Shown in pieces: positions 33,634 through 64,000 of a stretch of 64,000 nt of DNA. Source of the DNA: Octopus vulgaris (taxonomy: Eukaryota); assembly GCA_951406725.2 (NCBI GenBank), contig OX597831.1, forward strand, positions 67,332,001-67,396,000. Direction: 5' to 3'. The notes under the pieces are model-generated. The model ran no database searches. It worked only from the letters and a program-made list of their open reading frames with translations, and was not told the origin of the DNA. Both the position numbers and the translations under genes were made by a program. Within the stretch, counting starts at the first letter, position 1. The number at the start of each line of letters is the position of its first letter.

Positions 33634-33643
33634 ATGTTAAGAG
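33634..33643 (+). CDS. Putative initiator micro-exon (ATG TTA AGA G; exon probably 33616-33643)
   Basis: Sequence reads caacag|tattcgcaccaagcaataATGTTAAGAG|gtaagt. A at -3, consensus donor, phase 1. Splicing to 42208 gives [22 protein letters not shown], a plausible signal peptide. Confidence 0.65.
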
Positions 33644-63600: not shown

Positions 63601-64000
63601 ATTCCTTCGGATGAGTATCGAGTAATATAAGTGGTATTACATTATTTTATAGGCACAGAGCCTAAAAAATTTGATGAGTAAGGAGTGAAATGTTGTGAGG
63701 ATTCACGCTCGTTCATTGTACATTTGTGGTGTAATTGATATGAAAATATATAAGTAGAAATCGAAACGAAGCTGTTTTCATTGAGAAAAGTGGCTTTCAC
63801 TATAAACGATTAGATTATTTATTGTTCATGCTCCTAGACATTGGCAACTCTTTGGCTCTTGTCTCTTTGTTTTTCTATTATAGAATTAATAGCACTACTG
63901 GTCAGATACATGCCAATTCAGCAATTCCAGGCTTGAAAATTGAGTTTAGTCCTGACGGACAAAATACTTGGATTACTGTTGATAAACAGTCGAAAGCGTA
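33634..64000 (+). CDS. Secreted GH20 chitobiase-type beta-N-acetylhexosaminidase with N-terminal CBM14 (multi-exon gene model, 3' end outside the window)
   Basis: Join 33634-33643, 42208-42483, 43270-43434, 44739-45266, 50498-50943, 53442-54158, 58118-58358, 60160-60403, 63884->64000. All introns are GT..AG with matching phases (1,1,1,1,0,0,1,2). The join is one open frame with GH20 motifs [100 protein letters not shown]. Confidence 0.92.
34455..34938. repeat. (ATT/ATC)n microsatellite, about 480 bp
   Basis: Read directly; source of the poly-Y/H/I ORFs. Confidence 0.97.
35813..36370. repeat. Probable interspersed repeat inserted in (ATT)n; class unclear
   Basis: About 560 bp of complex sequence sharply bounded by (ATT)n on both sides, no ORF, single copy in this window. 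Confidence 0.5.
38700..38832 (+). mobile_element. Penelope-like RT fragment
   Basis: Translates [41 protein letters not shown]; DVxSLYxNI is the Penelope RT motif. Confidence 0.65.
39215..39850 (+). mobile_element. CR1/L2-group LINE RT fragment
   Basis: [24 protein letters not shown] motifs; internally deleted. Confidence 0.85.
39851..40495 (-). mobile_element. RTE-type fragment (39851-40080) joined to a CR1-type pre-RT fragment (40080-40495)
   Basis: [12 protein letters not shown]...[20 protein letters not shown]...[10 protein letters not shown]...[17 protein letters not shown]. Confidence 0.75.
40879..41400 (-). mobile_element. Helitron 3' end (5' extent uncertain)
   Basis: Minus strand reads TGCCGTCA-attc-TGACGGCA then CACTAG|T into (TA)n. 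Confidence 0.55.
42208..42483 (+). CDS. Exon 2: signal-peptide remainder plus CBM14 (peritrophin-A) chitin-binding domain
   Basis: Boundaries tccacag|cg ... tctg|gtaagg. Six cysteines spaced C-x12-C-x5-C-x10-C-x12-C-x9-C ([20 protein letters not shown]...CPVGQVF...CV...DC). 276 nt, phase 1-1. Confidence 0.85.
42616..42817. repeat. Compound (CTT)n(CTA)n(CTG)n microsatellite in intron 2
   Basis: Read directly; explains the poly-L tail of ORF 41970-43091. Confidence 0.95.
43270..43434 (+). CDS. Exon 3: start of CHB_HEX carbohydrate-binding domain (absent from the ORF track)
   Basis: Boundaries tttcag|tt ... ggag|gtaagt. Translates (V)[54 protein letters not shown]. 165 nt, phase 1-1. Confidence 0.85.
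43489..43892. mobile_element. Same MITE family, left end damaged, about 55 bp after exon 3
   Basis: Colinear with the other two copies; right TIR intact. Confidence 0.88.
44739..45266 (+). CDS. Exon 4: CHB_HEX domain and linker
   Basis: Boundaries taaag|aa tgg ... tcgg|gtatgt. EWKIYFCN...[14 protein letters not shown]...IIPKP. 528 nt, phase 1-1. Confidence 0.9.
45490..46232 (-). mobile_element. Mariner relic
   Basis: [17 protein letters not shown]..; terminus TACGAGGGGG on the minus strand. Confidence 0.75.
46830..47010 (-). mobile_element. RLE-type non-LTR (Hero/NeSL-like) C-terminal fragment
   Basis: [18 protein letters not shown]...[11 protein letters not shown]. Confidence 0.6.
47204..47696 (+). 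mobile_element. SINE family A (tRNA head, CORE-like segment, internal (TA)/(TG) microsatellite), full copy
   Basis: A box TGGCTGTGTGG, B-box-like GGTTCAGTCCC, gcaccttgggca core, (AAGAGT)n tail. Other copies or fragments at 4830-5018, 7530-7730, 20070-20228, 23558-23770, 25830-26238, 44447-44625. Confidence 0.9.
47985..48327 (-). mobile_element. tRNA-derived SINE family E, TSD GATGTTATTAT
   Basis: Minus-strand head TGGCTCAATGG...GTTCGAATC; TSD at 47974-47984 and 48328-48338. Confidence 0.85.
49598..50005. mobile_element. Same MITE family, TSD GAATAATC
   Basis: TIRs essentially intact; TSD at 49590-49597 and 50006-50013. Confidence 0.92.
50498..50943 (+). CDS. Exon 5: GH20b domain and start of the catalytic barrel
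   Basis: Boundaries ttgacag|ac ... tcg|gtcagt. EDYELTI...[10 protein letters not shown]...[19 protein letters not shown]...[20 protein letters not shown]. Confidence 0.95.
52041..52814 (-). mobile_element. Possible solo LTR with an internal ~108-bp direct repeat
   Basis: TGTAG...CTACA termini; minus-strand TATAAAA near 52545 and AATAAA near 52090; 52238-52346 is repeated at 52587-52696; no clean TSD. Confidence 0.45.
53066..53369 (+). mobile_element. Short non-autonomous Helitron ending about 70 bp before exon 6
   Basis: TATATATAAAA start; CCCGAGCAACGCCGGG hairpin plus CTAG|T. Confidence 0.75.
53442..54158 (+). CDS. Exon 6: GH20 catalytic domain with the Asp-Glu pair (HFGGDE at 53853-53870)
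   Basis: Boundaries ttgcag|att ... aag|gtaaat. IGAKRC...QLGSGP...GYYTVQDY...[13 protein letters not shown]...HFGGDEV...AWEDGL...WDNIWEW. 717 nt, phase 0-0. Confidence 0.96.
54656..54691 (+). ncRNA. Minimal variant hammerhead-like motif
   Basis: CUUU-CUGUCGA-A-GAGC guag GCUC-GAAA-CG-UA-AAAG; non-canonical core. Related motifs at about 63285-63315 (-) and 63378-63405 (+). Confidence 0.4.
54974..55085 (-). ncRNA. Hammerhead ribozyme-like motif with long stem II
   Basis: Minus strand reads UCU-CUGAUGA-aacccagag...cucuuggcu-GAAA-CAGCUG-UA-AGA. Palindromic stem III; stems somewhat decayed. Confidence 0.6.
55202..55584 (+). mobile_element. SINE family C, tail type 1
   Basis: Near-identical to the reverse complement of 30567-30951. 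Confidence 0.9.
56070..56657 (+). mobile_element. Short Penelope-derived element with an 81-bp 5' foldback and a hammerhead
   Basis: Arms 56070-56150 and 56174-56254 are reverse complements with 2 mismatches. Hammerhead at 56350. (TA)n at both ends. Confidence 0.65.
56350..56395 (+). ncRNA. Type I hammerhead ribozyme in a Penelope-derived relic
   Basis: CCUGAA-CUGAUGA-a GGA caaua UCC a-GAAA-CAUGCAUG-UA-UUCAGG. 6-bp stem I, palindromic stem III, A-A mismatch at the base of stem II. Confidence 0.7.
56707..57010 (-). mobile_element. SINE family C, tail type 3
   Basis: Family C head with a third tail, which also occurs alone at 40713-40830 within (TA)n. Confidence 0.85.
58118..58358 (+). CDS. 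Exon 7: GH20 catalytic domain, continued
   Basis: Boundaries cgacag|gtt ... atcg|gtaagt. [37 protein letters not shown]. Confidence 0.95.
60160..60403 (+). CDS. Exon 8: end of the GH20 barrel
   Basis: Boundaries gtctag|gt ... gcctt|gtatgt. [39 protein letters not shown]...YRVPPPGA. Confidence 0.93.
60620..61800 (-). mobile_element. Degenerate non-LTR retrotransposon RT region
   Basis: [26 protein letters not shown], an FADDL motif near 61360-61375, YLGIH-like segment; frameshifted. Confidence 0.7.
62202..62586 (-). mobile_element. SINE family C, tail type 1, TSD CTTTAATTAT
   Basis: Near-identical to 30567-30951; TSD at 62192-62201 and 62588-62597. Confidence 0.9.
63091..63507. repeat. Foldback (inverted) Penelope-type terminal relic with a central 20-bp palindrome
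   Basis: 63091-63312 and 63377-63507 are diverged reverse complements. CCAACAGCTCGAGCTGTTGG at 63357-63376. Confidence 0.65.
63884..64000 (+). CDS. Exon 9 (partial): CHB_HEX_C domain (absent from the ORF track)
   Basis: Polypyrimidine tract then ttatag|a; phase 2 matches exon 8. (L)[29 protein letters not shown] matches the chitobiase C-terminal pattern N..xPGLxIxYSxDG.xTW. Confidence 0.88.

Follow-up and report, generated by a model that had tools for sequence, protein, structure and literature searches.

The window, a stretch of 64,000 nucleotides of Octopus vulgaris DNA (G000:C18:67332001-67396000) that was analysed as a whole, appeared from its letters alone to encode a chitobiase-like GH20 enzyme with a CBM14 module at its N-terminus. 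This locus raises the question of whether the two parts really belong to one gene and, if so, where the combination occurs and what the module contributes to the enzyme.

Structure of the gene

The gene is spliced. Nine phase-compatible exons had been proposed in the preliminary description; their AG/GT borders and phases hold, and together they specify 914 residues without a stop. However, exon 9 is longer than proposed and a tenth coding exon is present past the window end, resulting in a full protein of 941 aa. The following features were assigned, positions being those of the window unless stated otherwise.

33612 or further upstream, +: 5' UTR, reaching at least back to this position (loose ends of contigs with a unique match at 33612-33641)
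33634..33643, +: exon 1, ATG, 10 nt, phase-1 donor (open frame and splice borders)
42208..42483, +: exon 2, phase 1-1, most of the signal-like peptide and CBM14 with six Cys at residues 39-92 (Pfam; both junctions in contigs; model pLDDT 88, top fold matches CBM14-type)
43270..43434, +: exon 3, start of CHB_HEX (phases, Pfam, contigs)
44739..45266, +: exon 4, remainder of CHB_HEX and start of GH20b (phases, Pfam, contigs)
50498..50943, +: exon 5, GH20b and first part of the GH20 barrel with D427, R430, and D460 (Pfam, phases, conservation)
53442..54158, +: exon 6, GH20 core with H536, HFGGDE (D617/E618), W666, and W693 (Pfam, phases, Serratia alignment, conservation)
58118..58358, +: exon 7, GH20 with Y724, D726, and W740 (Pfam, phases, conservation)
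60160..60403, +: exon 8, end of GH20 (W801, E803) and start of CHB_HEX_C (Pfam, phases)
63884..64000, +: exon 9, CHB_HEX_C, cut by the window end and continuing for 30 nt to the equivalent of 64030 (Pfam)
G000:C18:67405585-67405636: exon 10, last residues and stop, about 9.6 kb past the window

Pfam searches with the database copy of the protein (P0001) placed CBM_14 at residues 39-92, CHB_HEX at 116-255, GH20b at 287-415, GH20 at 419-829, and CHB_HEX_C at 857-935, which confirmed the domain order read earlier from the sequence, with a signal-like N-terminus in front. The four enzyme domains scored 102, 49, 307, and 78 bits, respectively, all above the Pfam cut-offs. CBM_14 reached 24.0 bits in P0001, the cut-off being 22.1, and 29.2 bits (PF01607) when exon 2 was searched by itself. 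The 90% protein cluster has seven members, and its named records, from O. vulgaris and O. bimaculoides, are labelled beta-hexosaminidase. Residues 4-14 are hydrophobic and signal-like, as judged by hydrophobicity only, a similar stretch is found in cuttlefish, and nine N-glycosylation sequons occur in the part encoded by the window. The enzyme is likely to be secreted.

Alternative public models of the gene exist (P0121, P0122, and P0126). In one of them the donor of exon 8 is read through, another has a different first exon, and the CBM14 exon is skipped in P0126, an older predicted isoform of O. bimaculoides. Open frames at 31608-32843 (+), 39212-39934 (+), 40078-40566 (-), 1948-2277, 25146-25677, and 45840-46154 resemble, by eye, fragments of LINE reverse transcriptases and Tc1/mariner elements.

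Transcripts joining the CBM14 exon to the enzyme

The junctions between exons 1 and 2 and between exons 2 and 3 (42483-43270) are contained in contigs from three of four runs, representing three studies, the fourth run having no contig at this place; the second of these is the junction for which a search in transcripts had been advised. The contigs align on exon 2 only, and their loose ends consist of exon 1 sequence before and exon 3 sequence behind, each string occurring once in the window (33612-33641 and 43270). Single contigs of 841-4111 letters lead from exon 1 by way of exon 2 into exon 3. Each of four further runs (4/4) provided one contig that crosses from exon 3 into exon 4 at a GT..AG border; the exon 3 piece of these contigs begins five letters early with one mismatch and fits the end of exon 2. 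Transcript evidence on junctions covers the first three, that is, exons 1-4. No skipping of the CBM14 exon was seen in seven runs with cover, but contigs drop rare variants, so its absence is not demonstrable.

It might be argued that the CBM14 exon is part of another gene lying upstream, so that the fusion would be an artefact of modelling, as the first exon has just 10 nt and lies 8.5 kb away, and as the Pfam scores are close to the cut-off. This highly improbable reading is refuted by the contigs of three studies that connect exons 1, 2, and 3, and the identical order in cuttlefish and in a further transcript cluster also speaks against it. The CBM14-GH20 fusion is real.

All three contigs show A>C at window position 42309 (I38L, at the start of the CBM14 region), and L is also the residue in P0001.

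A chitobiase-type catalytic part

The HFGGDE motif, described before as intact, includes D617 and E618 and aligns with HFGGDE of Serratia. We take this pair to function as D539/E540 do in Serratia, and the pocket to be lined by the conserved Arg, His, Trp, Tyr, Asp, and Glu residues. Of 89 aligned homologues, all have the same residue as the octopus protein at D427, R430, D460, H536, D617, E618, W666, W693, Y724, D726, and W740, while W801 is kept in 82 and E803 in 88 of them. The best sequence matches in PDB were 9JOQ (E 4e-204) and Serratia chitobiase (1e-145); those to HexB (5e-22) and insect GH20 (7e-14) were much weaker. TM-scores of the predicted model (pLDDT 91.4) were 0.83 against 9joq and 0.79 against Serratia chitobiase, which places it in the four-domain chitobiase fold, versus 0.42-0.43 against HexA/B. 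The protein does not belong to HEXA/HEXB: its closest similarity lies elsewhere and CHB_HEX domains are present. The original assignment to the chitobiase type rather than to HEXA/HEXB is therefore upheld (1e-145 versus 5e-22). GH20 enzymes act by substrate-assisted exo-hydrolysis, and the octopus protein is predicted to be an exo-N-acetylglucosaminidase active on chitin fragments.

Chitobiase-type GH20 genes in animals

Chitobiase-type GH20 was detected in Nematostella, Montipora, Exaiptasia, Lingula, many gastropods and bivalves, and the ichthyosporean Sphaeroforma. The octopus genome (G000) has three such loci, and paralogous genes are found at two positions:

C4:146.52-146.54 Mb: paralogous chitobiase-type GH20 gene
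C3:166.38-166.40 Mb: paralogous chitobiase-type GH20 gene

Three intron sites are common to the C4 paralogue and the window gene, as checked directly. Upstream of the C3 and C4 paralogues no CBM14 was found in the 40 kb around each.

A GH20 tree with bacterial chitobiases, another check proposed at the outset, united the animal copies, including those of cnidarians and a brachiopod, in one clade (support 99 and 1.0). Its sister is the GH20 of Photobacterium aquae (P0169, P0189), the joint group being supported by 97.4 and 0.876. The claim that the layout is of bacterial type stands as far as the four-domain order is concerned, but the layout is widespread in marine invertebrates, so only the CBM14 addition is unusual. 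Because the animal copies form one clade and the layout is broadly distributed, the bacterial look of the GH20 part is, on sequence comparison, an old feature in animals and no cephalopod oddity. Recent horizontal transfer to cephalopods was rejected on the grounds of this single clade with cnidarians and brachiopod and of the introns common with the paralogue.

Tandem double GH20 proteins of about 1,740 aa (P0002-P0023, P0161) are present in many gastropods, bivalves, Lingula, and Sphaeroforma; a hydrophobic C-terminal tail is frequent among them, and their two halves have different tree histories. Origin of the octopus gene by fission of such a molluscan tandem was also rejected: one tree, with 148 domain copies from 199 proteins, was in favour (0.951), and two others, with 130 copies from 106 proteins and with 48 hand-picked copies, were not (sister support 0.0 and 33). 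Three further GH20 homologues, P0185, P0233, and P0178, carry long extensions that look VWA-like, kinase-like, and EGF-like by eye and may be mis-joined models.

Distribution of the fusion

A CBM14 profile built from the fused modules and the octopus sister exons was applied to 342 proteins (297 of at least 700 aa), yielding 18 matches, 13 whole and five truncated. All 18 belong to three clusters, one from Octopus, one from the cuttlefish Acanthosepion pharaonis, and a third cluster, of transcripts, whose protein shares 66% identity with that of the cuttlefish. A generic six-Cys pattern searched over 304 proteins returned the same 13 only. Among 22 chosen proteins, Pfam detected CBM_14 in eight, one of them below the cut-off; the O. 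bimaculoides module scores 17.1 bits, below the cut-off of 22.1. The GH20 matches are the best of 13,515, and 150 representatives stand for 50% clusters whose members stay hidden. When the N-terminal region or the CBM14 profile served as query, cephalopod clusters alone were returned, three matches each, but such searches require exact word matches and say little about absence elsewhere. A search of the Atlas returned CHB_HEX clusters only, at 0.80, which is a lead at most.

The CBM14-bearing proteins form a clade together with a model from Argonauta (support 100 and 1.0). This orthologue model is without CBM14, but it starts at an internal Met and may be truncated. The fusion is present in octopod and decapodiform lineages, and among the proteins surveyed the CBM14 addition appeared only in this one cephalopod clade. 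A hydrophobic C-terminal tail is found in none of six members of the fusion clade versus 18 of 35 named molluscan relatives. A swap of a membrane tail for a CBM14 anchor is only suggestive, because cnidarian copies have neither tail nor module.

The fusion, which had been suspected to be uncommon and uncharacterised, is indeed restricted to 18 of 342 proteins in one cephalopod clade, and no description of it was found in the literature searched, most subscription journals lying outside that search. The available part of PMC7560691 reports that GH20 has expanded in molluscs, O. bimaculoides having seven genes, and that 45.3% of the molluscan GH20 genes carry CBMs; its text is without the terms CBM14 or CHB_HEX, but its figure 1b or supplement could show the architecture. 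A cluster of bacterial-type hexosaminidases among shell-matrix-like proteins is described in the accessible sections of PMC8059625. The fusion is not mentioned in the corresponding portions of PMC2492878, PMC6011409, PMC10138644, and PMC11291548.

Origin of the CBM14 exon

Eleven other CBM14 exons were located in G000, only one of them at E under 0.001, and all six Cys are common to them. Seven of these sister exons have a predicted phase-1 donor no more than 30 nt from the last Cys; two have none and two were mis-anchored by the script. By eye, a signal-like stretch precedes about nine of the 11. Since similar signal-plus-CBM14 exons begin other octopus genes, the module was probably acquired by exon shuffling. 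Such an exon would have been placed in front of a chitobiase gene before octopods and cuttlefish split.

The nearest relative of the CBM14 exon is situated at G000:C11:46843951 (L013, L024-L029) and also has a signal-like stretch; downstream of it are Cys-rich frames of VWC or pacifastin-type appearance by eye (L026:9470-9796, L027:551-874, L027:2066-2251). Gene clusters starting with a signal-plus-CBM14 exon and continuing with more CBM14 exons occur at G000:C6:105.49-105.51 Mb and 121.73-121.98 Mb (L030-L032).

Sequence and fold of the module

The six cysteines of the module (C39, C52, C58, C69, C82, and C92) have the spacing of the CBM14 family. Fold comparison with the module model (pLDDT 88) returned CBM14-type structures at ranks 1-11, with CHIT1 at the top and including EHEP, Der p 23, tachycitin, Blo t 12, and Avr4, at E values of 0.01-0.4, none under 0.001. 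The top PDB sequence match of the module is EHEP from Aplysia. All six Cys are kept between Octopus and cuttlefish, and identity in the module (21/54) is similar to that in GH20b (51/123). Compared with O. bimaculoides, 44 of 54 residues are identical in the module versus 118 of 140 in CHB_HEX. The module also retains the motifs F-x-R, VFS, and NDC.

High-impact residues of CHIT1, according to the part of PMC5459812 available, are P451, L454, and W465. With CHIT1 C450/C463 in register, P451 is kept as P70, while L454 corresponds to Q73 and W465 to N84. The CHIT1 binding type, an aromatic residue two positions after the fifth Cys plus the supporting Leu454, is therefore not seen in the octopus module. 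The Trp465 site is occupied by N, D, P, and P in the four fused modules (0/4 aromatic) versus F, W, or Y in seven of 11 sister exons. The window module is devoid of W and Y, and N84 starts a glycosylation sequon; the cuttlefish module has two W and one Y. Before the NDC motif, Trp is found in cuttlefish and the third cluster, Phe in O. bimaculoides, and Ser in the window. As stated in the available part of PMC10619976, critical residues differ among chitin-binding CBM14s, and neither Aplysia EHEP nor Der p 23 binds chitin.

Function of the module

The reading we prefer, to which we attach somewhat better than even confidence, is that of a secreted chitobiase-type GH20 which clips GlcNAc from chitin fragments and is held on chitin by its N-terminal CBM14. 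Chitin binding by the fused module, and with it the anchoring on insoluble chitin of crustacean prey, beak, radula, or gut lining that was suggested at the outset, is only plausible, because the CHIT1 Trp site is non-aromatic in all four modules and because some CBM14-fold proteins do not bind. The module would bind weakly, perhaps via a face other than that of CHIT1. The tether would keep the enzyme beside GH18 endochitinases, whose oligomers could be finished to monomer on the spot, and it would most likely serve to digest prey chitin and, with less likelihood, to remodel the chitin of the animal itself. As a counterpoint, a tether is of less benefit to an exo-enzyme that works on soluble oligomers than to an endochitinase. 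A more far-reaching version, which we regard as doubtful, is a coleoid-specific invention: the shuffled exon would have given the chitobiase an anchor of its own where many other molluscs use a membrane tail, and, with a binding face independent of the CHIT1 Trp, cephalopods would be able to convert crustacean cuticle to GlcNAc at the polymer surface.

Two other explanations deserve consideration. The enzyme could be an active chitobiase whose CBM14-fold module binds a ligand other than chitin, be it a protein, a component of mucus or matrix, or a polyphenol, as in Aplysia EHEP. The missing aromatic residue at the Trp465 site in four of four fused modules fits this proposal, and so does EHEP as best PDB sequence match, EHEP and Der p 23 being non-binders in the accessible sections of PMC10619976. 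We nevertheless consider it unlikely, as the nearest solved structures to the enzyme joined to the module are those of proteins acting on fragments of chitin, W and Y occur at other sites in the cuttlefish and third-cluster modules, one of these sites being aromatic in seven of 11 sister exons, and, in the same source, key residues vary even among chitin-binding CBM14s. Alternatively, the module may bind chitin in cuttlefish and squid and be decayed or optional in octopods, with exon 2 of Octopus kept mainly for the signal peptide. The two W and one Y of the cuttlefish module versus none in that of the window, the sequon at N84, the sub-threshold Pfam score in O. bimaculoides, the Argonauta model without module, and the predicted isoform P0126 would all be accommodated. 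Against this quite unlikely course, none of the six Cys is missing and the motifs F-x-R, VFS, and NDC are intact, identity to O. bimaculoides is 44/54 in the module versus 118/140 in CHB_HEX, the seven runs with cover contained no skipped form (contigs drop rare variants), and a skip would drop the signal peptide as well.

What is new in this protein is the addition of CBM14 to GH20, both parts being known already. If the tether works, the protein represents a naturally occurring exo-enzyme that is attached to its polymer and is conserved in octopods and cuttlefish. It would then bear on the digestion of crustacean prey or the remodelling of beak or gladius in cephalopods, constitute a clean case of exon shuffling, and allow testing whether a binding module helps GH20 to finish chitin to GlcNAc, a matter of relevance for chitin conversion. 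Should chitin not be its ligand, the module would still define a subfamily of CBM14 in cephalopods that binds something else. No general principle is altered, since fusions of hydrolases with binding modules are common.

Comparison with known systems

The chitobiase of Serratia marcescens (PDB 1QBA) and the bacterial protein PDB 9JOQ share the four-domain order and the catalytic DE pair with the octopus protein. Their matched chains are without CBM14, whereas the octopus protein is specified by ten exons and has nine sequons in the window part. Lysosomal HEXA/HEXB and insect GH20 likewise possess GH20b and the GH20 barrel, but they comprise about 500-580 aa and contain nothing matching CHB_HEX or CHB_HEX_C. 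The chitobiase-type GH20s of marine invertebrates (Lottia, Patella, Aplysia, Mytilus, Lingula, Nematostella) and the C3 and C4 octopus paralogues have the same four domains, the nearest being 44-48% identical to the octopus protein; they differ in that no CBM14 was found in them and many are tandem doubles of 1,740 aa. Human chitotriosidase (GH18-CBM14) resembles the octopus protein in combining a chitin-active hydrolase with a six-Cys CBM14. It is, however, an endochitinase with a C-terminal module containing Trp465, while the octopus protein is a GH20 with an N-terminal module in which no such Trp is present.
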